Below are positions 4,252-25,209 of a DNA stretch of 32,150 nucleotides, in pieces. The notes beneath the pieces were generated by a model that made no database searches, was not told the DNA's origin, and worked only from the letters and a program-made list of their open reading frames with translations. The stretch comes from a virus. The stretch lies in the UHGV virus genome UHGV-0070112, one strand, 5' to 3'. The position numbers and the translations under genes are program-made. Within the stretch, counting starts at the first letter, position 1; every line of letters begins with the position of its first letter.

Positions 4252-4881
4252 TCACACCAGTACTGATTTAGCCTGATTAAACAGCGCTCGGCGTTTATCC
4301 AGACCGTTGCGGCCACCGTTAATAAGCAGTGTTACGCGCTCAACATCACCGGAATGAAGCAGGCAACCGTGGGAGACATAAAACCATGCGGCCGAACGTG
4401 CAGCGTAATCATCTCGCTCCAGCAGCTCAGGCTGGGTAACAAGGTCAAGTTTCAGCGCCTGTCCGCAGCTGCGATAGTTGCTCAAGCCCGTAACTTGTTT
4501 CAGGCCGCGACCGCGATATTTCCAGCCATCACCAGCAACCTGATTACCGAGATTCTTTTTGCCCCACTCGCCCCCATACACCAGATTAGCGATTGCTCGC
4601 TGATTCGCTGGTTGTGTTGCCGTTCTGCCGAGTGCGGCGGCCTGCTGGGCGGTGATACGGTGTTTGCCGAACGTAGGAACAAGTCTGTCGGCGGCGTAGT
4701 TCAGGCTTTCCACCAACGTTGTATAACCACCGGATTCATGCCCCATCTGCGCGATGAACATCGCCTGATCGAGTGGAGCTGTGATACCGAATTCTTTCAT
4801 CGCAGCATCAATGTGCGGAAACCAGCGCGCAGCTAACCCGGCGCTGATACCAGCCGCCCGTTGAAATTGTGATTGGTTCAT
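4252..4881 (-). CDS. Endolysin, GH19 chitinase-like lysozyme
   Basis: 209 aa; motifs FIAQMGHESGG and NLVYGGEWGKKNLGN typical of GH19-type phage lysozymes. Sits between holin-like and spanin genes. Confidence 0.8.
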   Translation of the reverse strand: MNQSQFQRAAGISAGLAARWFPHIDAAMKEFGITAPLDQAMFIAQMGHESGGYTTLVESLNYAADRLVPTFGKHRITAQQAAALGRTATQPANQRAIANLVYGGEWGKKNLGNQVAGDGWKYRGRGLKQVTGLSNYRSCGQALKLDLVTQPELLERDDYAARSAAWFYVSHGCLLHSGDVERVTLLINGGRNGLDKRRALFNQAKSVLV

Positions 4882-5162
4882 CAGTGCCTCAGTGCATCAA
4901 CAAGCCGTGCTACATTGCCTCTTACGCTCAGCAGCACAACAAGGATCATGATATTGGCCCCGATGGTGGGCCATGTTGAATAGGGATAGATGCCGCACAG
5001 ATACGCCAGCGGCACAGAGCTGTATAACACTGTTATCAGCCATGCCAGCCGGGAGACCCACTTACGATGCCGTGAATCTCGACGGCGATAGAACATCAGA
5101 GTAACCACGATACCAGCGCATAACAGCGCATTGATTGTTGCTGTCGGATCATTTAGTACCAC
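4881..5162 (-). CDS. Lysis-cassette membrane protein (holin/antiholin-like)
   Basis: 93 aa with about three hydrophobic helices; immediately upstream of the endolysin. Confidence 0.5.
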   Translation of the reverse strand: MVLNDPTATINALLCAGIVVTLMFYRRRDSRHRKWVSRLAWLITVLYSSVPLAYLCGIYPYSTWPTIGANIMILVVLLSVRGNVARLVDALRH

Positions 5163-5535
5163 CGGAACCTCCCCGGCGCGTTATTAGCGCCACCAGCGAG
5201 CCAATATCCTGATTGTTCAGGAAGGTGAGTATTTTCACGGCCAATGCCGAAATGATTACGGCACCAATAGCATCCAGCGGTTTATCGCTGTATCCGGTAA
5301 GGGCTGATAGCTTGGAGCCTACTAACCCGGCGCACAGAACACCGGCGATATAGGACACCACGAAATAAGCCATACGCCGTGTTGCGCTCAAATCGGCAGC
5401 GGTCGCTATATAAAATACAGAACCAGCAAATGCCCCGAACACAACACCGTAATCAGTACCGGTTAACAGCCCGTAAACACTCGCACCCGTTAAAGCGCCG
5501 CCAGCTAAGCCTGTGCCGGTTATTGGTTCGGACAT
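5149..5535 (-). CDS. Putative holin
   Basis: 128 aa, Gly/Ala-rich with multiple TM segments; first gene of the lysis block. Confidence 0.55.
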   Translation of the reverse strand: MSEPITGTGLAGGALTGASVYGLLTGTDYGVVFGAFAGSVFYIATAADLSATRRMAYFVVSYIAGVLCAGLVGSKLSALTGYSDKPLDAIGAVIISALAVKILTFLNNQDIGSLVALITRRGGSGGTK

Positions 5536-6188: not shown

Positions 6189-6656
6189 TCCTTTAGGATG
6201 GCCGCCAGATGGATTTACGACTAAACACTGAAAGTGAGTGACGTTCTGGCGCACAAATGAAAAAAGCCACGCAAATGCGCAGCCCTTAGAAACGAAAAAG
6301 CCACCCGAAGGTGGCTCACTGTTCAGCGTTAGAGGTATACCCACCTTCGCCTTTAATGCAGCGTTATCATCTTTCAGGCGATCTACTTGGTTTTGCAACC
6401 TTTCAATTTCCTTATCGGTGTTGTCTCGGTCGCGCTGAAGACCTTTTATTACTTCACCTTGGGACGCCTGTACTTCTTTTGAGGCCTGAACGGCCGCCTC
6501 AGTCTCATCGACGGTGTTAATTAAACGAACCGTCAGGAATGAAACAATGGCCATCAGAAGAACGACCATAGCGGTAAGAATCCAGACCTTCACGCCGGAA
6601 GCAGAATTATCAGAGGCTTCTATAAGAAATTCCTTATGAATAGAAAAAATACCCAA
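6135..6656 (-). CDS. TM plus coiled-coil protein, start and C-terminus uncertain
   Basis: TM helix (VKVWILTAMVVLLMAIVSFL) followed by a heptad-like segment (EIERLQNQVDRLKDDNAALKAKVG). No ATG start with RBS. The C-terminal third reads through a perfect hairpin at ~6296-6316 and looks non-protein-like. Confidence 0.35.
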   Translation of the reverse strand: MGIFSIHKEFLIEASDNSASGVKVWILTAMVVLLMAIVSFLTVRLINTVDETEAAVQASKEVQASQGEVIKGLQRDRDNTDKEIERLQNQVDRLKDDNAALKAKVGIPLTLNSEPPSGGFFVSKGCAFAWLFSFVRQNVTHFQCLVVNPSGGHPKGLSAEFFFQRLHFLQYLI

Positions 6657-7242
6657 CGCGCGGCCGCGACGTTAGAACCATGGGTATTTTAACTACATAA
6701 GGTTATGAAGATCTTCGGAAAAAATGAGATGATGGTTTGTTTGGTTATTTAATGAGCGAAAACAGCCAAAATCCCCATGCAGGGATGATAAAAAACGTCA
6801 TTGTGTAGACGACTGCAGGCTGTAATTTATTCAAATTAAATTTCCTTAGTAGGGCTCTATGTGTCCTACAACATCCAACCTACCTAAAGACATTGATTGA
6901 TACAAGAGGAAAAACACTACTTTTTTATCAAATTGGGATCGGTTTTGTTTCCGATGGCGCGGCATTATACGGAGATAACCCAAGTTATCAACAGAAATTG
7001 CCAGCATATGTACGCAAAATGTGCTGTTTCTAATTTTGAGATGGTTGTGGTGCCGGGTGCCTCCCGGTGAGCATGCCCCAACAGACATTACTCGCGCGGT
7101 ATTCACAGGGCTTTCGCTCTATTAGTTGGACGCCCCTCCGCATAGGGGGATTCACCACACGGATAATTTAGGATGTAGTCATAGGCGGCGTCAATAACTG
7201 ACACTCTGTCAAAGGCACCATTACGATGCCTTTTGCACAGTG

Positions 7243-7398
7243 CTAATCACTGGATCTAATAAGGGGCCAGAGCAAAGCGATTACCCCAGCTACCAGCACG
7301 CCATCAGCCAGGATTGACATCATTTTGCTGGTGAAGTCGATAGCAACCACCAGAAACAAAAGCACCCCGGCTGCGGCCCAGCGAAGTTTACCGATCAC
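7243..7398 (-). CDS. Hypothetical 51-aa two-TM peptide, coupled to TerB-like gene
   Basis: Manual translation (M)IGKLRWAAAGVLLFLVVAIDFTSKMMSILADGVLVAGVIALLWPLIRSSD. GTG start overlaps the TerB stop (GTGA). Below the track length cut-off. Confidence 0.35.
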   Translation of the reverse strand: MIGKLRWAAAGVLLFLVVAIDFTSKMMSILADGVLVAGVIALLWPLIRSSD

Positions 7399-7820
7399 AG
7401 GTACTGGTCCAGAGGAAGTTGCAGAGCTTGGGCAATTTTCTTCAGCTGTTTCTCTTCTTCTTCCCCGATACCGTCATTATCTGCTACATCAAGACACAGG
7501 CAAAGAACATCGACAGCGTCATCCGTCCCGGCAACATCAGCCAGTTCGCGCAACGCCTGAGCGTTGGCTGAACGCGGCGATGCTTCGTAACGAGCGCGAA
7601 TATTCGAACTCATCTGGGCAATTTCACCAGCAAATGGCGCGAATGCCGGCAGGGCCGAAATAGTCTTCTCCAGCACTGCAATCTCTTTTGCATCGCAGGT
7701 ACCATCGGCGTATGCAATCGAGTACGCTCCCCAGACCGTGGCTTCTACAGCATCGCGGTTTTCCATTTTTTTCACTTCAACAACGGCTTTACGGGCTTTC
7801 TTTTTAAAAATACCAAACAT
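7395..7820 (-). CDS. TerB-like domain protein
   Basis: 141 aa with acidic helical TerB-like core (CLCLDVADNDGIGEEEEKQLKKIAQALQL). AAGGA RBS upstream. Confidence 0.55.
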   Translation of the reverse strand: MFGIFKKKARKAVVEVKKMENRDAVEATVWGAYSIAYADGTCDAKEIAVLEKTISALPAFAPFAGEIAQMSSNIRARYEASPRSANAQALRELADVAGTDDAVDVLCLCLDVADNDGIGEEEEKQLKKIAQALQLPLDQYL

Positions 7821-7952
7821 AGTGACTTTCCTTTTAGCGGGTGAGCCAGCGCTCAGGAATGATCAGCCCACAGAGACAGTCACACTGACTATTCCCTATG
7901 GCTCACCCCTGAAAGGCTCTGTGGTTATATAACGCCGAGCGTGGCGCAGATA

Positions 7953-7977
7953 CGAAAAAGGCCCGCAAATGCGAGCC
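7953..7977 (-). terminator. Intrinsic terminator between late-leader region and TerB-like gene
   Basis: Minus-strand hairpin GGCUCGC-AUUU-GCGGGCC followed by UUUUU. Confidence 0.5.
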
Positions 7978-8373
7978 TGGTTGATCCGCTTACTGATACG
8001 GAGCGACCAACCTAAGTTGTCGCAGATTCAAATTGTGGCCCTGCCTTTAAGTCACTTTGCGCGCAGCTGGGACATGTAGTTTTCGCATCGTGATCGGGAT
8101 TCGCTTCAGGCGCTGGCCCCGCAGCCATATAAGTGCCGGTTACGGTTCCGGCCAGGCCTCTTCCTCAACGGGTTATTCTCCATACGGATTTCCGTTTGTT
8201 GGTCGTTCCTGCGATCTCAATTTTCCGGTTACGTTTATCCGGTGGCTTACGCCCGGTTTAGCCCTAAGGTAAGGGATTTGGTTGTGGTGGCAGGCGCCCA
8301 TCTCCTGCTTAACGTCAATCAACGCTTGCACATCGCTACGTTATGGGCCGGGATCAACCGATATTTTCGCTCG

Positions 8374-8476
8374 CCACAACGGAAAGAGCACTGGTAATCT
8401 GTAGCGGGTATTTACTCGCGCACGCCGTTTTGACGTGCGGCCCATTTCAGCATGGTCAATGATCTTACCTGTTGTG
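8374..8476 (-). other. Paired-motif element, late-leader copy
   Basis: Minus strand reads CACAACAGGTAAGATCATTG ... ~80 nt ... CCAGTGCTCTTTCCGTTGTGG; the two arms are imperfect reverse complements. A second copy is at 23361-23475 on the plus strand. No credible ORF in 7978-8538. Confidence 0.3.
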
Positions 8477-8538
8477 CGCTCCGTTTCGTGGAGCAGACGC
8501 CGCCGGAATCGCACCGGCAGAATCATCACATTGGTATA

Positions 8539-8570
8539 TGGTGCTGGTTGACGGAATCGAACCGCCGTAG
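8539..8570 (-). tRNA. tRNA 3' segment (T-arm, acceptor 3' strand, CCA)
   Basis: Minus strand ctac-GGCGG-TTCGATT-CCGTC-AACCAGC-A-CCA. Acceptor 3' strand AACCAGC is the exact complement of the 5' strand GCTGGTT at 9037-9043. Begins 1 nt after the HNH stop codon. Confidence 0.45.
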
Positions 8571-8990
8571 CTATTTCGTTATTTCCAATAAACCTGCGTG
8601 GACTTTTCTGTGGCAATTAGCACAGAGGACAATACACTTCCTCACTTCATCTTTAAGTCGATTTCGTGATCTGCCACATAGATTGGAAGGGTCGCCTTCT
8701 TTGCTGCCGGCGTTGTCATGATGAAGATCCAGAACAACAGGTTCTTTTTCTCCGCAATTTTGGCATCCTATGAAGCGTTTATATCGAGCTAGAAACTGAC
8801 GGTTTGAACTTGTTTTTCTCGTTCTCGTTGACTTTATTAGCTGTCGCCTTGACTCATTGGTTGCATAACTCAAAGCATCTCTTTCCTTAGCGCACGCCTT
8901 ACAGATATTTTGTAGGCCATCGCTCTTTCCTTTGTTTTTATGGAAATCGGAAGCAGATTTTAACTCTTTGCATTTGCTACAAATTTTCAT
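8571..8990 (-). CDS. HNH endonuclease with N-terminal Cys-rich motif
   Basis: 139 aa; N-terminal CSKCKELK...CKAC and C-terminal HNH motif (LDLHHDN...CANCHRKVH). AT-rich by eye. AGGA RBS. Lies between the two halves of the tRNA-like gene. Confidence 0.8.
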   Translation of the reverse strand: MKICSKCKELKSASDFHKNKGKSDGLQNICKACAKERDALSYATNESRRQLIKSTRTRKTSSNRQFLARYKRFIGCQNCGEKEPVVLDLHHDNAGSKEGDPSNLCGRSRNRLKDEVRKCIVLCANCHRKVHAGLLEITK

Positions 8991-9005
8991 CAGTATCCTA
9001 GGTCA

Positions 9006-9043
9006 TTACAAGGCAGGCGCTCTACCAGCTGAGCTAAACCAGC
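9006..9043 (-). tRNA. tRNA-Thr(UGU)-like 5' half (acceptor, D-arm, anticodon stem 5' strand and loop)
   Basis: Minus strand GCTGGTT-TA-GCTC-AGCTGGTA-GAGC-G-CCTGC-CTTGTAA with U33 and anticodon UGU. The expected 3' anticodon-stem strand GCAGG is absent; the sequence runs into the HNH RBS. Overlaps the last codons of the N6 methyltransferase. Confidence 0.45.
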
Positions 9044-10083
9044 AAATTGCGCATTTCACTGACCGTCTGTTCAAATCTCTCGGTTTCCAGTTCGACACCT
9101 AGTCCCCTTCGCCCGAGAAGAGCAGCCTGCTTGAGCGTTGAGCCTGATCCAAAAAAGAAATCAGCTACAACATCACCCGGGCGGCTACTCGCTGTGATTA
9201 TCTGCTCCAGCATATCCGCAGGCTTTTCACATGGGTGTTTACCTGGATAAAACTGAACAGGCTTATGAGTCCAGACGTCGGTATATGGCACCGTGACCGA
9301 TACGCTGAATGGTCGCCGTAAACGGTAATATTCCTGCTGGAGTTCAGAATATTTTCGGCTTAACGATTGCCAGGTAGCGACAAGCTGGTGGTGAGGTTTT
9401 CCCAGTTCGTTGCGTGAGTGCTTATCCATGGCGATTTTTTGAAACAAAGCCTGCAACTTTAAATAATCGGCTTCGTTCGGTAGCTGCCACTGACTAAGGC
9501 CAAACCAGTGGGAAACCATATTTTTCTTACCTGTGGCTTCTGCAATCTGAGCGGACGTCACGCCAAGAGATTCCCGTGCATCACGGAAGTAAGAAATTAA
9601 AGGCGTCATGACGTGTTGCTTTAACTCATTACACTTTGCGGCATATCCATCGTCTTTGGGCCTGTATGGCCCCTGATAATGGTCGGCAAAAATGATACGT
9701 TCCGTCGCCGGGAAATATGACCGGAGGCTTTCTTTATTGCATCCGTTCCAGCGTCCCGAAGGTTTAGCCCAGATGATATGGTTGAGCAGGTTAAACCGCT
9801 CTCTCACCAACAGCTCAATATCCGCTGCCAGGCGGTGCCCACAGAACAGATACATGCTGCCGGCAGGTTTTAACACTCGCCAGAACTGTGCCAGACAGCT
9901 ATCCAGCCAACGTAAATAGTCCTCGTCCCCCTTCCATTGGTTATCCCAGCCGTTTGGCTTCACCTTAAAGTAAGGCGGATCGGTAACAATAAGATCAATG
10001 GAGTTATCGGGTAGCGATGGGAGGTATTGCAGGCAATCAGCATTGATTAATTCAATACTGGATGTTTTTACAGTATTTTTCAT
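9034..10083 (-). CDS. DNA N6-adenine methyltransferase, beta class
   Basis: 349 aa; motif IV IVTDPPYF near the N-terminus and motif I FFFGSGSTL near the C-terminus, the beta-class order. No adjacent restriction endonuclease other than the small HNH ORF downstream. Confidence 0.8.
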   Translation of the reverse strand: MKNTVKTSSIELINADCLQYLPSLPDNSIDLIVTDPPYFKVKPNGWDNQWKGDEDYLRWLDSCLAQFWRVLKPAGSMYLFCGHRLAADIELLVRERFNLLNHIIWAKPSGRWNGCNKESLRSYFPATERIIFADHYQGPYRPKDDGYAAKCNELKQHVMTPLISYFRDARESLGVTSAQIAEATGKKNMVSHWFGLSQWQLPNEADYLKLQALFQKIAMDKHSRNELGKPHHQLVATWQSLSRKYSELQQEYYRLRRPFSVSVTVPYTDVWTHKPVQFYPGKHPCEKPADMLEQIITASSRPGDVVADFFFGSGSTLKQAALLGRRGLGVELETERFEQTVSEMRNLLV

Positions 10084-10232
10084 AGATCAGTAAGCGTAAC
10101 TCTGATAGGCTCACTTTGCTTTTGCGCTAAAGCAGTGGGCCGTGGTTAGCTTGTGACCTGAAAGCATGAGCTGATGGCTGGCCGGGTGCTACAACACCCA
10201 CCAGCCGCCCATTTTCACAGCAAAAGCCCCCA

Positions 10233-10424
10233 TTACTGGAGGCGCTTATAACATCCGAACTGATAATCAGATAACCCCGCCATTACCAGCTGCATAAGTA
10301 TGAGCTGGCAGCGTTCGCGGCTCAGGTGAGAACTCTGTGCAATCTCTCCAGCAGTAGCTGGTTTGTCACTTAGCTCATTCAAAACAGCCTTGGCTGTTTC
10401 CGTCATATCTTGCTGATTTAGCAT
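10233..10424 (-). CDS. Small winged-helix-like protein
   Basis: 63-aa ORF with helix-turn-helix-like core (ATAGEIAQSSHLSRERCQLILMQLVMAGL). First gene after the candidate late-operon terminator, upstream of the N6 methyltransferase. Confidence 0.45.
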   Translation of the reverse strand: MLNQQDMTETAKAVLNELSDKPATAGEIAQSSHLSRERCQLILMQLVMAGLSDYQFGCYKRLQ

Positions 10425-10503
10425 GTCTTTTACCTAAAAAAGTGGCGTGACATACAGATAACTCTCGTTACTGAGTACAGCAAGAAACAATCGCGATAAA
10501 CGT

Positions 10504-10524
10504 AAAAAAACCCGCCAGAGCGAG
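10504..10524 (-). terminator. Candidate tR'-like intrinsic terminator
   Basis: Minus strand CUCGC-UCUG-GCGGG followed by seven U. Sits ~120 nt downstream of a promoter-like TTGTCA/TTGTAA region in the 10525-10642 intergenic gap. Confidence 0.35.
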
Positions 10525-10642
10525 TTTTTAATGTTTAAGCTGTGTGTCGAAGTGACCACTCTTAACACGTTACATAACAAAATGCGGACCGCGTTAGTGA
10601 TTTTTTTATTTCCTCACGCTAAGGTAGGTTTACAAGAACGGA

Positions 10643-11527
10643 TTGACAAAAATTGAGGCAACCTTGGAAAGTTCGACCACCTTTAAAATCTTCTACGATG
10701 CTGAAGATGATGAGTTAGCACAGCATAAAATTGACGCGAAAACTTTAAGTCTTTCAATTGGCTCAATGGCAGAATTGATTTCCAAAGCAGATAAAAATCT
10801 TAATGACGGGCAAGAAACAGTCAAATTAATGGTTACAACACCTGCTGCTGAAGGCTCAATTGGTGTTGTTTATTCAATGATGGAGTTAGTCCCTAATGCT
10901 ATAAACGTGGCTAAAGTTATCGGTTTAACGGCAGCAGGAGGGGCTTTTATTGGTGCTCCCGCGCTTTCATTGATCCGGCAGTTAGGGAGTAAAAGAGTTA
11001 TATCGATTACTAAAAGACCCCAGACGCATGAAGCCGTCCTTGAGCTTGAAGATGGGGAAATTGTTTGTAACGATGCTGTTGCAAAATTAGTTACTGATCC
11101 TGAAATACGTCAAGCTCTGGTTAACGTCGTAAGGGCTCCTCTTGATGGTAAAACCAATCCTGTTTTTAAAATCCTTGACCAGGAAGGTAACGAGGTCTTG
11201 CGGCTTGAGAATGAGGAAACAGAAGAGGTAAAACCTTTACCTCGTGGTACACTTCTTGAAAAAGAAGTATCAATCGATGAGGTGAATGTTCGATTCGTCC
11301 AAGTGAACTTTGAAGGAAACAAAGGATGGAGAATTGATTACCTTGGGGATGAACATTCAGTTAGCCTAGATGACAACGTGTTCCTTTCTCAGGTCCAAGC
11401 TGCAACAGTGCAATTCTCCAAAGAAGATCTTTACGTTGTTGATCTAGAAACTATTAAAACGTACACAGCCCGTGGGGTAACGCATCGTTACACCATAAAG
11501 AAGGTTAAGCGTAAGCGCCCAGCGTAA
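10643..11527 (+). CDS. Hypothetical protein A of AT-rich three-gene cassette
   Basis: 294 aa, no recognisable catalytic motif. TTG start (first in-frame ATG is 40 codons in); AGGTAGG upstream. Visibly AT-rich. Convergent with Q. Confidence 0.45.
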   Translation: MTKIEATLESSTTFKIFYDAEDDELAQHKIDAKTLSLSIGSMAELISKADKNLNDGQETVKLMVTTPAAEGSIGVVYSMMELVPNAINVAKVIGLTAAGGAFIGAPALSLIRQLGSKRVISITKRPQTHEAVLELEDGEIVCNDAVAKLVTDPEIRQALVNVVRAPLDGKTNPVFKILDQEGNEVLRLENEETEEVKPLPRGTLLEKEVSIDEVNVRFVQVNFEGNKGWRIDYLGDEHSVSLDDNVFLSQVQAATVQFSKEDLYVVDLETIKTYTARGVTHRYTIKKVKRKRPA

Positions 11528-11533
11528 GTAGGA

Positions 11534-11800
11534 GTGATGGTAAACCAGCAACTTTTTGAACTAGCGATGTGGGTAGGGGTGATAATGGCTTCCCCCCTGC
11601 TTTTTCGTTTTTCATATGCTGCATCTGCCTTGTTATGGCGGAGGGTTTTCCCTACTCGTAAATTTGAGTTTTCGTATAAGGATGAAAATTCTCAAACCAT
11701 ACGCTCTGTAACAATCCTTATCCCAAGAAATAGAAGCAAAACCCTTGTTCAGTTGATAGATGAAGCCCGAAAGAACGGGGACAGAAACAGTGGCAAATGA
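11534..11800 (+). CDS. Hypothetical small membrane protein B of cassette
   Basis: 88 aa with one N-terminal TM helix (LFELAMWVGVIMASPLLF). Starts 7 nt after the gene A stop with AGGAG just upstream. Confidence 0.4.
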   Translation: MMVNQQLFELAMWVGVIMASPLLFRFSYAASALLWRRVFPTRKFEFSYKDENSQTIRSVTILIPRNRSKTLVQLIDEARKNGDRNSGK

Positions 11801-12206
11801 TAAGAAAACCACCAGTCCAGTGTCATCGACACTTTCAACTGGGGGCATAGGCATAATTCTATCTGGTTTGGTTACCTATTTTGTGCCAGAAACCAAGTCT
11901 GGACTAGCTAAGCTATTGTATTTATTCATCCCTTTTGTTTCAGCTATTTTGACCTACCTTATGGCTTGGGTTATAGCCCGGCATGGACTTGAATCTCCTG
12001 AAGATGCAGCCAAACGGGCAAACTTCTTGAGAGATTTAGCCACAATTGATGTTGAACTTGCTAATGATAACAACTCTGAAGAATTCAAGGAAAAGTTAAG
12101 AAAATCAAGAGAGAAAACTGTAGAGATGATGATTAACATTGGAAAGGAAAGCACTTTTACTTTCTTTGATAAAAGTAATGAACAATCAGCAAAGGGCAGC
12201 GATTAA
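11760..12206 (+). CDS. Hypothetical membrane protein C of cassette
   Basis: 148 aa with two TM helices (GGIGIILSGLVTYFV, LLYLFIPFVSAILTYLMAWVI) then a charged helical tail. Overlaps gene B by 41 nt in another frame; start may be GTG at 11790. Confidence 0.4.
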   Translation: MKPERTGTETVANDKKTTSPVSSTLSTGGIGIILSGLVTYFVPETKSGLAKLLYLFIPFVSAILTYLMAWVIARHGLESPEDAAKRANFLRDLATIDVELANDNNSEEFKEKLRKSREKTVEMMINIGKESTFTFFDKSNEQSAKGSD

Positions 12207-12221
12207 CTGCCCTCTTATAAC

Positions 12222-12587
12222 TTAACAATCTAGATCAAGACGGATGTCTAACATTGATAGACATCCGTCAATAAAACCTTCAGCCATCTGTATCTCGATC
12301 CGGATCAACTTCTCATCTTTCTTTTGCGCCTTAGCTATTTTACGTTTCGAGATACCGTACAGGTAATGAGCCACGAGCAAACTGTGCTCGTATGGCTTCT
12401 TTTCTCGAAGCCTTGCCAAACAGCCTTCTATGATCAGCGCATCATCATCAGTACAGCACAAGCGCGTTTTTCCGCCCTGCGGAAGAAGCCCCTTAAAACC
12501 TGCTGCAATGTGGGAATAATCAATACCGGAGCTGTCAGCTGCCGCCCAGCCTCCCCATAAATCTAAAACCTTTTGCATGTCACGCAT
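12222..12587 (-). CDS. Phage antitermination protein Q (QuuD-like)
   Basis: 121 aa; motifs LDLWGGWAA, FKGLL, CCTDDDALIIEGCLARL match the small Q-family antiterminators of lambdoid prophages as I recall them. Confidence 0.7.
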   Translation of the reverse strand: MRDMQKVLDLWGGWAAADSSGIDYSHIAAGFKGLLPQGGKTRLCCTDDDALIIEGCLARLREKKPYEHSLLVAHYLYGISKRKIAKAQKKDEKLIRIEIQMAEGFIDGCLSMLDIRLDLDC

Positions 12588-12604
12588 TCATATTCTCCAT
12601 ACAC

Positions 12605-13660
12605 TTATGCTTTTACAATGACGCCGATACCCATTACCCGATCCAGAAAACGAGCCCACAGCTCTAACTGAGTGCCATATTTCTTTTCGAACTCTGATGT
12701 ATTGGCGTGTAATTCATCGTGATGCACTCTGCACAGTGGTATCACGAAGAGATCATGGGCCTTGGTGCCAGTTCCCCCCAGACCATTCCCTATTATATGG
12801 TGTGGATCGTCTGATGGTTGCCTACAGCATTCACATGGCTGAGTTTTAACCCAACGTGTGTAAACTTCGCAGGTCCAGCGCCGGCGCTTTGGGCGGCGCA
12901 TAAATGATTCGGGGCTGTTCGGATCGACACTAAGCCTCAGAATGGGTTTACTTTCACTCTGAGTTTGCTCAATGAGTACACTGGCTTCCGCCAGGTCTAT
13001 GCCCTCGACAAGATCCTGAAGGATTTCACCTGCAGCAAATGACGGGACAATATCGCTATCCTTATAAACGGACAGGAAAGGTTCCTCAGGCAGTCTTAAG
13101 GCCTGTTGCGCCATCGTCTCGGTTATTGCGTCAGCAATGCCGGATTTCACAGCCCACCAGCAGAGCTCCGCCATCGATAATTCGCGCTCCTTATTGTATC
13201 CAAGGCTGATCTGCACCCTTTCAATCACCCACTGAACCAGATTCTGATAAGCCAGCTCTGACAACATTTCGGTGGCCTGCTCACGTAATTCATTATCACA
13301 ATGCCAGCAGACAACCATGGCGCCAGGCGGATGCCGCATAGTCACTAATTCATGGTGGTGATAGTGGGAATGCGGGTACTGGCACTCTCTGACATGTCGT
13401 AGAAGCCAGGCCTCAAGAGCGTTTATTCCACCAGCTGCGTTAATAACCCTCTCATCCCTCATGAAAAAACGCAGAATGTCCATTTCGGCAAGCGGCTGAC
13501 GTGCATCGGCGATCCGCCCAGTAGGCAGTGTTTTCATTTTCTCTGGCTGACGCTCTATCAGGACACGGCCGCCGGTAAAGAGAGACATCAATTCGCGGCC
13601 TGGTTTGAAAAGAACAACGCCCAGGCGCGGCACAATTTCCGGAGTAAGCAATGCTCGCAC
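12605..13660 (-). CDS. Phage protein with C-terminal HNH-like Cys/His motif (DUF968-like)
   Basis: 351 aa; C-terminal CECCRQPSDDPHHIIGNGLGGTGTKAHDLFVIPLCRVHHDELH. Family name is from recollection. Confidence 0.5.
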   Translation of the reverse strand: MRALLTPEIVPRLGVVLFKPGRELMSLFTGGRVLIERQPEKMKTLPTGRIADARQPLAEMDILRFFMRDERVINAAGGINALEAWLLRHVRECQYPHSHYHHHELVTMRHPPGAMVVCWHCDNELREQATEMLSELAYQNLVQWVIERVQISLGYNKERELSMAELCWWAVKSGIADAITETMAQQALRLPEEPFLSVYKDSDIVPSFAAGEILQDLVEGIDLAEASVLIEQTQSESKPILRLSVDPNSPESFMRRPKRRRWTCEVYTRWVKTQPCECCRQPSDDPHHIIGNGLGGTGTKAHDLFVIPLCRVHHDELHANTSEFEKKYGTQLELWARFLDRVMGIGVIVKA

Positions 13661-13668
13661 AATCCCCC

Positions 13669-14199
13669 CTAAACAGTCAGATCTTTAAGCTTCTGCACGG
13701 CTTTACCAACTTCAGCCATAGCATCTACGAACTCGTCAAACTTCCTGCTGGCCATTCCATATGCCTGGAGAATTTCCAACTTCAAGGGATCGAGCTGTTT
13801 CTTAATTTCTGCACGATCCCCTGCTTTTTTCTCCGCTTCCTCTGCCGCTTTGATCAAGGCGTCGGCCTGTTTACGTAATGCTTCCGGAGTTACTTCGAGC
13901 TGTTTATTCATTTTGCATTCCATCGTCGGCTGAGGAGGTGTCATTACAGGCGCCACAGATTTGTGACCATATTTCGGGTGGTGCAAGGTAGTAGACCTTC
14001 CATCATCTATCACGCAGAGCATCCCGCTTTCCCGGATTATTTCGATCAGGGTCTCTTTGTCTTTGCGATTGAGCCCACTGTATGCCGCCACTTTGTGCGT
14101 CAGGTGGGTTAGCGTTGCGCCTTCTGGTTGCCTCTCTACAAAACGCTTTACCCTGGAAAGCACTGGTTGCAGGTGTGGGGGAGTCATTCTCATGTTCAC
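13669..14199 (-). CDS. Hypothetical protein
   Basis: 176-aa ORF in the nin-like block; helical, Lys/Glu-rich C-terminal half. Confidence 0.45.
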   Translation of the reverse strand: MNMRMTPPHLQPVLSRVKRFVERQPEGATLTHLTHKVAAYSGLNRKDKETLIEIIRESGMLCVIDDGRSTTLHHPKYGHKSVAPVMTPPQPTMECKMNKQLEVTPEALRKQADALIKAAEEAEKKAGDRAEIKKQLDPLKLEILQAYGMASRKFDEFVDAMAEVGKAVQKLKDLTV

Positions 14200-14202
14200 C
14201 CC

Positions 14203-15045
14203 TTACTGCGTGACAACGCCAATGAGCTTTAAAAGCTCAGGAAATTTCGATTCGAAGAAGTGCGGTTGCGTCTCACGTGGATTTGCCGGGCTGGTGATGT
14301 TTTTACCGTACAGACAACCTTTTGCCGTAACAGACCAGAATCTTTTCACGCCATTGATACCCGTTCGGCTGCGGCGCTCCTTCTGCTCGACTATGCCGTG
14401 ACCAGCCATAAGGTGATAAGCCTGGTTCGCGGTCATTCTGATGTTGTTAGCTTTAAGCAAAGCGCTAAGAGACAGCGTTGGTCTGCTGGAACCATCCTGC
14501 GCGCCAGCTGGTGCATCAATGGCATATGAAGGCATTAAATCAGGCAGCCCTGCTACCTGCTGAAGCTTCTGATATGCCCCGAGCTTTGACGAATTAGAGA
14601 GATTGAGCATTTTGGCTGCAGATTCCAGGAGGATTATGCCGGCTTGAATGCGATCGGTATTGACGGTTGCAGCCCCAGCAGTGTGGAGCGCGTCAAACGT
14701 TCTGATGACCTTCAGATTAAAAACAGCGCTGATCCACATCGCGTAGGCATACACCAACTCACGGCAAACATAGGTACCTTGCTCATTTCCGCCGCGGATG
14801 ACACTTACAGGTTCTGAAATATCCGAGTTGCTATTTTGCAACTCGCCTATCAATTGCGCAGTTTGTTCGTTACGGAGCCAGAATGCAGGCTTATGGCGGT
14901 CAAGGGAGCCGGAAGCACGATGGAGATCGTTTAGGCAATAACGACCAAGGACATCACGACGAACAGAAATACCATCAATAACAAAAAAATTGTGATTATT
15001 GGATGCAGCAGCACCCATGACGTGGTTAGTCATAGCTTTCTCCAT
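14203..15045 (-). CDS. KilA-N domain protein (antirepressor-like)
   Basis: 280 aa; N-terminal FFVIDGISVRRDVLGRYCLNDLHRASG...KPAFWLRNEQT resembles the KilA-N domain. Confidence 0.55.
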   Translation of the reverse strand: MEKAMTNHVMGAAASNNHNFFVIDGISVRRDVLGRYCLNDLHRASGSLDRHKPAFWLRNEQTAQLIGELQNSNSDISEPVSVIRGGNEQGTYVCRELVYAYAMWISAVFNLKVIRTFDALHTAGAATVNTDRIQAGIILLESAAKMLNLSNSSKLGAYQKLQQVAGLPDLMPSYAIDAPAGAQDGSSRPTLSLSALLKANNIRMTANQAYHLMAGHGIVEQKERRSRTGINGVKRFWSVTAKGCLYGKNITSPANPRETQPHFFESKFPELLKLIGVVTQ

Positions 15046-19543: not shown

Positions 19544-20451
19544 CCCCGGAACCCCCGTGGAATCGTGGTTTGTACTGGACTAATTGAATTAACATCCCGC
19601 GGTCTGGTTTTGTCCCACGACTCCCTTGGCGGGCGGCCTTTAGCATCCCAACGGATAGCGCTTTGCAGATATCCCTCGAATTTTTTAGGGCCGAAAAGTG
19701 TCTCGGGTCGCATGTACTGGTATTGCTCGTCGTTGCCATGCCAGTGCTCATGCTTGATGTCAATTACCAGTTTCAAGTCGCTAACGGTATGACCTTCGCG
19801 GAGGCGGGCGCGAATGTTCTCCAGCGAGGTCTTAGATTTCTGGTAACGGGAACCGCTGACCAGATTCAGGTGTGCCAGAACTTCGATCGCGTTATCGGTA
19901 ATAACAACTTCAGGATCCGGCTTATCGTCGGGTTCCGCAGGAGCCCGACAAGAAGGTTTTTTAGATGACGGATCTAATGACGGATCTAATGACGGATCGC
20001 CTTCAACCATTGAGGGGTCCTCCCGCAATATTTGAGGGGGTACAGACCCATTATTTGAGGCATCAGAATTTGACCCCTCAAATTTTGAACCCTCAAATTC
20101 TGAGGCATCAAATTTTGATTGTTCACGTGGCGTTGCGTAGAAAATTTTTGCTTCAGCTGCTGCACGTTCCAGCATGTCAACATTGAGTTTATAAACGTTC
20201 GAATTATTCTTTCCGCCCACGCGCCGTTCCTGCTTCTTCAGCCAGCCTTTAGCCTGAAGCTTTTTGATAGCGCTGCGGACAGTATTCTCGCTCTTGGCGC
20301 CGATCTGTCGCTGAATAGTGGTTACCGCTGGCCATGACACACCTTCGTCATTACTGAAATCTGCCAGGCGAGCCATGACCGCTATTTCTGAGATTATCAG
20401 CCCTTTGAAAGCGCATGCTTCCCATACGAGGCCGTGTAATTTACTGCTCAT
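19540..20451 (-). CDS. Replication initiation protein (O-like) with conserved phage C-terminal domain
   Basis: 303 aa; N-terminal HTH-like region, central low-complexity linker encoded by the iteron repeats, C-terminal VLAHLNLVSGSRYQ...LKLVIDIKHEHWHG typical of phage replication proteins. Confidence 0.7.
   Translation of the reverse strand: MSSKLHGLVWEACAFKGLIISEIAVMARLADFSNDEGVSWPAVTTIQRQIGAKSENTVRSAIKKLQAKGWLKKQERRVGGKNNSNVYKLNVDMLERAAAEAKIFYATPREQSKFDASEFEGSKFEGSNSDASNNGSVPPQILREDPSMVEGDPSLDPSLDPSSKKPSCRAPAEPDDKPDPEVVITDNAIEVLAHLNLVSGSRYQKSKTSLENIRARLREGHTVSDLKLVIDIKHEHWHGNDEQYQYMRPETLFGPKKFEGYLQSAIRWDAKGRPPRESWDKTRPRDVNSISPVQTTIPRGFRG
19965..20115. repeat. Iteron-like repeats (candidate origin) inside the replication gene
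   Basis: Direct repeats gacggatctaat x3 (19965-20000) followed by at least six copies of TTTGAGGG / CCCTCAAA-type units in both orientations (20008-20115). Confidence 0.5.
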
Positions 20452-25080: not shown

Positions 25081-25209
25081 TTCAAAGCCTGATTGCTCAG
25101 CCTTAAATCCCCGCAGCTGCGGGGATTTATTGAAGCGTAATCCTGTAATTAATCGCCACCTGGCGAGGGATTCCTACACCCAAAAAACAGCGCTGTGCAG
25201 GCGTAAAGT

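Follow-up and report, generated by a model that had tools for sequence, protein, structure and literature searches.

In phage lambda, late gene expression is governed by a constitutive promoter, a short terminated RNA and the antiterminator Q, which is loaded at the promoter. Lambda Q belongs to a family (PF03589) unrelated to the Q proteins considered below; the lambda pause element, AACGAT, occupies +1 to +6, and the leader measures about 194 nt. In phage 21 (Guo et al. 1991; Yin et al. 2019; Shi et al. 2019, PMC6606751), Q has 162 amino acids (aa) and is of the Q21 family, PF06530 (PMC9388147). The late promoter pR' follows directly after the Q gene and has a consensus -35 element (TTGACA), a Q-binding element (QBE) made of a direct repeat, ATTGAGCA and AATGAGCA, at -27 to -12 (PMC6606751), and a clear pause element, TAAGCT, at +2 to +7. 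In the record of phage 21, pR', the QBE and the start are annotated, as is a terminator from +3 to +50 that is referred to Guo et al. 1991. For Sp5, the 933W-like Stx2a prophage of strain Sakai, one report gives a PR' start mapped by differential RNA sequencing (dRNA-seq) 258 nt before a Term-seq 3' end, an RNase E cut in a GUAUU motif at +173, and processing of the transcript to the 74-nt 3' Hfq-binding RNA StxS (Sy et al. 2020, PMC7547250). In DLP12, PA-2 and 434B, the Q gene (quuD/ybcQ) is followed by the opposite-strand porin gene nmpC/lc and then by the lysis genes. The Q of DLP12 is reported to control the lysis cassette (Rueggeberg et al. 2013, cited in PMC7918800). Here we compare with these systems the UHGV virus genome UHGV-0070112, a stretch of 32,150 nt (hereafter the window) in which a Q gene of the PF06530 family, three oppositely oriented genes and a gap followed by a winged-helix gene succeed one another on the way to the late genes. 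The minus strand is the forward direction of the phage. For this gap, the initial annotation had proposed a late promoter and a tR'-like terminator displaced from Q.

We conclude that positions 10504-10607 of the window (minus strand) probably constitute the late control unit, PR' plus tR', of a lambdoid prophage with a Q21-family antiterminator, a reading to which we assign a probability of about 0.8. The support in hand consists of sequence features, conservation, the correspondence of palindromes with Q types, and homology to a late promoter with a mapped start. The observation made in the initial annotation was largely right and its interpretation right in part; a conserved block and a terminator do occupy the gap. 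The logic would be that of lambda. The components are the following.

12222-12587, minus strand: Q antiterminator gene, 121 aa, matching the Pfam model PF06530 over its full length (E = 1.7e-50).
10601-10607, minus strand: A-tract at -47 to -41.
10584-10592: palindrome GCGGTCCGC, centred at -28 (-32 to -24), candidate Q-binding element.
10567-10572, minus strand: putative -10 hexamer TAACGT.
10556-10566, minus strand: conserved GTTAAGAGTGG with the predicted start, A10560.
10533-10559, minus strand: conserved leader, with a small hairpin, GUGGUC/GAC-A-CAC (10559-10542), and CTTAAAC (10539-10533).
10504-10529, minus strand: putative intrinsic terminator tR', stem 10529-10506 with arms AAAAACUCGC/GCGGGUUUUU and a run of seven U at 10510-10504.

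The phages closest to the window by Q protein, mEp390, vB_EcoS-733R5 and SfIV (82-84% identity), share its layout of Q, hairpin, opposite-strand genes, gap and late genes. Common to their gaps is a block composed, in order, of the A-tract, CGCGGTCCGCA, 15 nt, TGTTAAGAGTGG, about 20 nt, CTTAA and a hairpin with a U-run, of which the copy in the window spans 10607 to 10504. The A-tract, which may act as an UP element of PR', is kept in the blocks even at loci where it forms part of the Q coding sequence. Nearly all blocks and lineages carry a -10 hexamer of the form TAnnnT, with the middle positions free, and GTTAAGAGTGG is nearly invariant across Q lineages. A leader hairpin, either GUGG...CCAC or GUGGUC...GAC-A-CAC, is found at +2 to +19 in most variants, and the conserved leader is possibly involved in pausing or Q loading. 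The same block type (TGTTAAGAGTGG and then a terminator) precedes the holin gene in DLP12, PA-2 and 434B, whose lineage has a Q 46% identical to that of the window. Full-text literature queried with GTTAAGAGTGG yielded only unrelated papers, and the supplements of Adams et al. 2021 contained neither an essD entry nor the block sequence.

Compared with phage 21, the window agrees in the family of Q, in the position of the candidate QBE between the -35 and -10 regions, in a terminator ending about 50 nt after the start and in the late genes lying downstream on the same strand. It differs in the size of Q, the two proteins being only distantly similar (the window Q matches the Q21 structures 6P18 and 6JNX weakly, E = 1.7e-4), in having a palindrome rather than a direct repeat, and in that neither a consensus -35 nor a clear pause element is evident.

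Sp5, whose Q is 43% identical to that of the window, provides an anchor for the transcription start. Directly after Q, it carries gaaaaaat, the palindrome TTTACGATCGTAAA, 8 nt, TATCAT, GATAAGAGTGG, a hairpin with U7 and, later, a second terminator. Homologous to the window are the A-tract, a palindrome centred 20.5 nt upstream of the -7 T, TAnnnT, G(A/T)TAAGAGTGG and the first hairpin with its U7, whereas the Sp5 palindrome overlaps the Q stop codon, so that Q and PR' are adjacent there and displaced in the window. When the distances given in the Sp5 report are measured from the GUAUU motif (1017-1021) and, backwards, from position 1103 of the locus, the final U of the second terminator, both converge on A846, 7 nt after TATCAT. 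By homology, this would make the hexamer just upstream of G(T/A)TAAGAGTGG the -10 and the A in AAG-A-G, A10560 in the window, the start, giving a terminated RNA of about 57 nt. The phage 21 terminator at +3 to +50 implies a similar leader length. The separation of about 120 nt between promoter and terminator proposed in the initial annotation is accordingly too long, the block lying some 60 nt nearer the terminator.

Two other registers were tried and rejected. Register B, with TGnTAAGAG as an extended -10, puts a G at -7, leaves the TTTCTT variants without a purine at the expected start and conflicts with the Sp5 constraints of 258 nt and +173. Register C, with TAnnnT as the pause element and a promoter farther upstream, fails for want of a conserved -10-like hexamer 13 nt upstream. 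The pause model of phage 82, in which an element at +9 to +14 is followed by GCC and a pause at +25 (PMC5001585), did not fit the block either; phage 82 Q belongs to yet another family, PF06323 (PMC9388147).

The hairpin and seven U that the initial annotation had read as a terminator stand up to scrutiny, as the fold of 10495-10562 reaches -19.1 kcal/mol (z = -4.3) and none of 200 shuffled sequences did as well. A GC-rich hairpin with a U-run is present in 106 of 125 distinct blocks (85%), the stem ending between +40 and +54 in 97 of the 106, and more than 50 different hairpin sequences occur among them. In this survey, the terminator finder trimmed A-U pairs at the stem base so that the U-run was kept. 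No second terminator is found in the window between tR' and the winged-helix gene. It is to be noted that the Sp5 hairpin with U7 lies at +26 to +48 (positions 871-893 of the Sp5 locus, L213), far upstream of the StxS-defining tR' at +258; the accessible parts of PMC7547250 do not mention it, and its position matches those of the window tR' and the phage 21 terminator. The predicted leader of the window is not of the StxS type, being about 57 nt in length as opposed to 258 nt and lacking the StxS part, and no Rfam family matched in the 10504-10642 region, nor in 7800-8700.

The distance between Q and this block was then compared across relatives. An exact-pattern scan of viral contigs retrieved at least 120 loci, and each of the 109 with enough upstream flank has a Q homologue preceding the block on the same strand. 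Only 0-11 nt separate the Q stop codon from the block in 16 of them, Stx2 phage 1720a-02 among these, against 557-2536 nt from Q in the other 93. When loci were instead retrieved by their Q protein, the block stood 402-2730 nt downstream in 73 of 80, the remaining seven mostly having short flanks. In the DLP12/933-type lineage, the block is displaced in 81 of 104 loci, the median distance being about 1.6 kb. We conclude that the block normally follows Q and in the lineage of the window has usually been pushed away by an insert. In the window itself, 1628 nt and three plus-strand open reading frames (ORFs) separate the end of Q from the promoter block, as the initial annotation had estimated (1.6 kb, behind a convergent cassette). 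This departs from phage 21 and from the canonical cassette of Yin et al., in which PR' directly follows Q; because most relatives are displaced, such adjacency appears typical of the model phages rather than defining for the family. The displacement noted in the initial annotation is not unusual and represents the usual state of the lineage (93 of 109 block loci, all 73 Q-retrieved loci that have the block, and also DLP12 and PA-2), with the nmpC/lc arrangement as its classical precedent.

The candidate Q-binding element was assessed by comparing Q lineages. Six lineages carry six palindromes, each centred 20 to 20.5 nt upstream of the -7 T (i.e. at -28).

Window and phage 1720a-02: GCGGTCCGC.
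Klebsiella phage ST846-OXA48phi9.1: GCGTACGC.
phiP27: GGAATTCC.
DLP12, 434B and PA-2: TTTACGTACGTAAA.
Sp5: TTTACGATCGTAAA.
Escherichia coli 118UI prophage: ATTCGT-T-ACGAAT.

The Q proteins diverge in the predicted recognition-helix region, and the window and 1720a-02, which share a palindrome, both have the motif IRIE there. In a second pattern scan, all 155 GCGGTCCGC blocks with a detectable upstream Q were preceded by a window-type Q with IRIE, and all 104 TTTACGnnCGTAAA blocks by a DLP12- or 933-type Q with IGKR. In the two types that were scanned at scale, palindromes and Q types thus agree without exception, in 259 of 259 loci. As palindrome type tracks Q type, GCGGTCCGC is likely to be the Q-binding element. 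These comparisons suggest a testable rule for recognizing PR' in the sampled short-Q lineages (a palindrome, 10-13 nt, TAnnnT, G(T/A)TAAGAGTGG and a terminator near +50), and the palindrome-and-Q pairs form a set usable for studies of Q specificity.

The interval between Q and PR' is flanked and occupied as follows.

12605-13660, minus strand: DUF968 gene, upstream of Q.
12191-12215: hairpin between Q and the cargo, with the last cargo stop codon in its loop.
10643-12206, plus strand: three-gene cargo convergent with Q, encoding a 294-aa PDC-S42-like protein and ORFs of 88 and 148 aa.
10233-10424, minus strand: winged-helix protein, 63 aa, first gene after tR'.
9034-10083, minus strand: DNA methyltransferase, next after the winged-helix gene.

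The cargo ORFs (10643-11527, 11534-11800 and 11760-12206) all oppose the Q strand, and a gap of about 220-240 nt separates them from the winged-helix gene. The 294-aa protein, whose likely start is TTG at 10664 preceded by GAGG, matches PADLOC PDC-S42 (E = 6e-31) and also phrog_3243, with no match in Pfam; the 88-aa and 148-aa ORFs are small and membrane-like in appearance. No convincing sigma-70 promoter was found for the cassette on the plus strand. The hairpin at 12191-12215 is likely to be a terminator for the cassette and for read-through on the Q strand; the mEp390 record annotates a bidirectional terminator at the equivalent position. A pattern of three ORFs of these sizes recurs in about ten other loci in viral contigs; the alignments of L008 and L082 with the cassette of the window show about 70% identity. 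More generally, the Q-PR' interval, surveyed in loci L004-L208 and L215-L294, contains 125 distinct inserts, whose proteins form 35 clusters and are nearly always encoded against the direction of Q. Representatives match many families related to defence, among them PDC-S20, PDC-S49, PDC-M68A, TIR-TM, a PD-(D/E)xK nuclease and SRA / mREase_II, and further ones a NucC-like nuclease, PifA, KAP NTPase / QatA, AbiC, an SDH protease and NYN. With variable genes at a fixed site, facing the opposite way and provided with a likely terminator of their own (12191-12215), this cargo has the attributes of morons; the corresponding cargo in the DLP12 lineage is a porin gene, as opposed to the three-gene PDC-S42 cassette of the window. 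A limited literature search retrieved no description of the Q-PR' interval as a defence hotspot; the interval is a rich hunting ground for defence genes carried by prophages.

The junctions of these exchanges could be mapped by comparison with two relatives (L130 and L131) that keep the Q type (94-96% identity) and the block and carry a different cargo. Their homology with the window ends at 12243 and 12259 and sets in again at 10606 and 10608, making the A-tract at 10601-10607 the right-hand junction of the exchange. A larger swap is seen in Klebsiella phage Kp4866-6, which is 96-98% identical to the window as far as 12595 and from 10486 onwards, the intervening segment measuring 986 bp (L001 3115-4092) against 2108 bp in the window. 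It contains the gene of a 276-aa Q that is not of the window type, with a lambda-like PR' (TAATTT, AACGATGGG) and a terminator immediately behind the gene, which indicates that the Q-to-tR' segment of the window behaves as one replaceable unit.

At the left junction of the cargo exchange, in the last codons of Q, lies a perfect 12-bp inverted repeat, GACGGATGTCTA...TAGACATCCGTC (12239-12269, 7-nt loop), which folds as drawn and is one of only five inverted repeats of at least 11 nt within 40 nt in the whole window. This repeat, pointed out in the initial annotation, is real but far from general, as among about 100 Q 3' ends it occurs only in the window (12 bp) and in one relative with the same cargo type (L144, 11 bp), the longest stem in the other variants being 3-8 bp. 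It might be a by-product of coding, the encoded peptide DGCLSMLDIR being compatible with a palindrome; the amino-acid motif is kept in nearly all Q homologues, and roughly 100 variants lack the repeat. We consider this explanation the less probable one, albeit a serious contender. A perfect repeat needs some ten specific synonymous choices, among them the rare codons CTA, TTA and GGA, a combination whose likelihood we put roughly, by inference from the codon usage of E. coli, at about 1e-5; L144 has the two arms unchanged against a background of 74% identity in the surrounding DNA; and the repeat falls exactly where homology breaks with phages of other cargo. The repeat has probably been selected in this lineage, and it may provide a 3' stem-loop common to the converging Q and cargo transcripts.

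Several observations weigh against the assignment of 10504-10607 as a Q-controlled late unit. The -35 region is poor (AACGCG or TAACGC). No convincing or conserved pause element of the form TAnnnT was found between +1 and +25; TAAGAG resembles the phage 21 element TAAGCT and overlaps the start (-4 to +2), while another pause candidate, TGG-TYWCTT at +3 to +11, has no A at -11. The start at A10560 is a prediction by homology, and the Sp5 start that anchors it was placed by two internal distances, the absolute coordinates in the Sp5 report belonging to another version of the record. Furthermore, the phage 21 QBE is a direct repeat and not a palindrome, and binding of Q to the palindrome is argued from co-variation. 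Finally, the Sp5 hairpin with U7 lets some polymerases pass, since a 258-nt RNA is made.

This last point suggests that the terminator of the window may be leaky as well, and transcription may leak from tR' into the winged-helix gene in lysogens. Pushed further, the hairpin at 10506-10529 would be merely a weak first stop and the real terminators would be those at 10226-10243, behind the winged-helix gene, and 7959-7978, leaving the winged-helix gene, and perhaps the methyltransferase gene, expressed in lysogens. Besides the Sp5 transcript, such an interpretation could draw on the GC core of the window hairpin, which is only 5 bp long and includes a G-U pair, and on the further terminator-like sites that follow tR'. 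We nevertheless find it unlikely, because the phage 21 terminator is annotated at the same position, the run of seven U is perfect and the hairpin is kept in most distinct blocks; moreover, RNA-seq readily overlooks very short RNAs, so that the Sp5 data give no measure of the efficiency of the first hairpin.

The initial annotation had placed the promoter upstream of the block, at the hexamers TTGTCA (10649-10644) and TTGTAA (10635-10630). These are only 8 nt apart and cannot serve as a -35/-10 pair; TTGTCA falls just outside the gap as delimited there (10504-10642), and both are absent from the list returned by the consensus scan. Their surroundings are not conserved and adjoin the cargo start, where the plus strand reads TTGACA and TTACAA. 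A more elaborate version combines TTGTCA as the -35 with TACCTT (10626-10621) as the -10, in which case the RNA stopped by the same hairpin would measure about 115 nt. TTGTCA matches the consensus at five of six positions, the spacer is 17 nt, TACCTT fits TAnnnT, and relatives with the same cargo have TAAATT or TAATTT near its position. The pair scores 8/12, however, which is under the scan threshold, and promoter-like matches in the 6500-14500 region are at chance level (10 against 10.3 +/- 3.4 expected in shuffled sequence). The region varies with the cargo and is Q coding sequence in the Q-adjacent phages, which keep the downstream block; on the plus strand, the same bases read TTGACA and TAAGGT by the cargo start, so that their conservation may serve a cargo promoter; and the homologous PR' of Sp5 starts inside the block. 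We therefore regard a late promoter at this position as very improbable. Least probable of all is that the block mainly serves as a divergent promoter or operator of the cargo cassette, for, although it stands back-to-back with the cargo start, with TAAGGT (10620-10625) on the cargo strand about 28 nt from the palindrome and equivalent TAnnnT hexamers in relatives with the same cargo, it is found in the same orientation in cargo-free phages (the 16 Q-adjacent loci, 1720a-02, 118UI and Sp5), is unchanged across 35 unrelated cargo protein clusters and follows Q type, not cargo.

Taking 10504-10607 as PR' plus tR', the following course of events can be proposed. RNA polymerase with sigma-70 would start near A10560 by means of the -10 hexamer TAACGT (10572-10567), a weak -35 and the upstream A-tract and, without Q, would stop at the hairpin and seven U (10529-10504), releasing an RNA of about 57 nt. 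Q, whose gene (12222-12587) closes the early rightward operon, would diffuse to GCGGTCCGC at -28 and load onto the early elongation complex. The modified polymerase would then ignore tR' as well as the later terminators (10226-10243 and 7959-7978) and transcribe the winged-helix and methyltransferase genes, further cargo, and the holin, endolysin and packaging genes. The 1.6-kb Q-PR' interval would be a moron-type cassette facing the opposite way and ended by its own terminator (12191-12215), in a slot that relatives fill variously and often with defence-like genes. Within this scheme, we infer the binding of Q to the palindrome, the exact start, the efficiency of the terminator and the site of the Q-loading pause. 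With the late start and stop so placed, the Q-controlled set would comprise the winged-helix, methyltransferase and TerB genes and the lysis and packaging genes, with the defence-like cassette outside it. The lineage-specific palindromic candidate QBE and the seemingly defence-rich cargo slot are by-products of moderate interest. A wider synthesis, which we offer as speculative and rather doubtful, would be that short Q proteins of the Q21 family (that of the window, Q933 and QuuD) load as symmetric dimers on the palindrome of their lineage at -28, in contrast to the direct repeat of the solved phage 21 element, that the Q-PR' interval is a general slot, mostly for opposite-facing and often defence genes, with junctions in the last Q codons and in the A-tract, and that the cargo promoter lies back-to-back with PR' and can be switched by Q or by late transcription at the lytic turn.

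Farther downstream on the same strand lie two holin genes (5149-5535 and 4881-5162), an endolysin gene (4252-4881) and the gene of the small terminase subunit, and the late region downstream of PR' also contains a TerB-like gene. In the 118UI prophage, a winged-helix and DNA methyltransferase pair directly follows the block in the same order as in the window, and the Stx phages 1720a-02 and phiP27 have, behind the block, a small unnamed ORF and a DNA methyltransferase gene, with the stx genes coming after these. ARAGORN detected no tRNA genes across the window. Between the TerB-like gene and the lysis genes, at 6989-7189 on the minus strand, there is an Rfam match to STnc100, a gammaproteobacterial small RNA (71.6 bits, gathering score 47). 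Within the late operon, ahead of the TerB-like gene, the terminator-like hairpin at 7959-7978 (minus strand) is strong, with 8 pairs, 6 of them G-C, followed by a T-run. Next to it, in the ORF-poor region 7978-8538, a stretch of 82 bp (about 8132-8213) is 94% identical to the DNA adjoining plp in phages P1 and P7. Lastly, the early region carries two long imperfect palindromes, at 20053-20113 and 25091-25142 (30-nt arms, 80% complementary), which could be operators or an origin.

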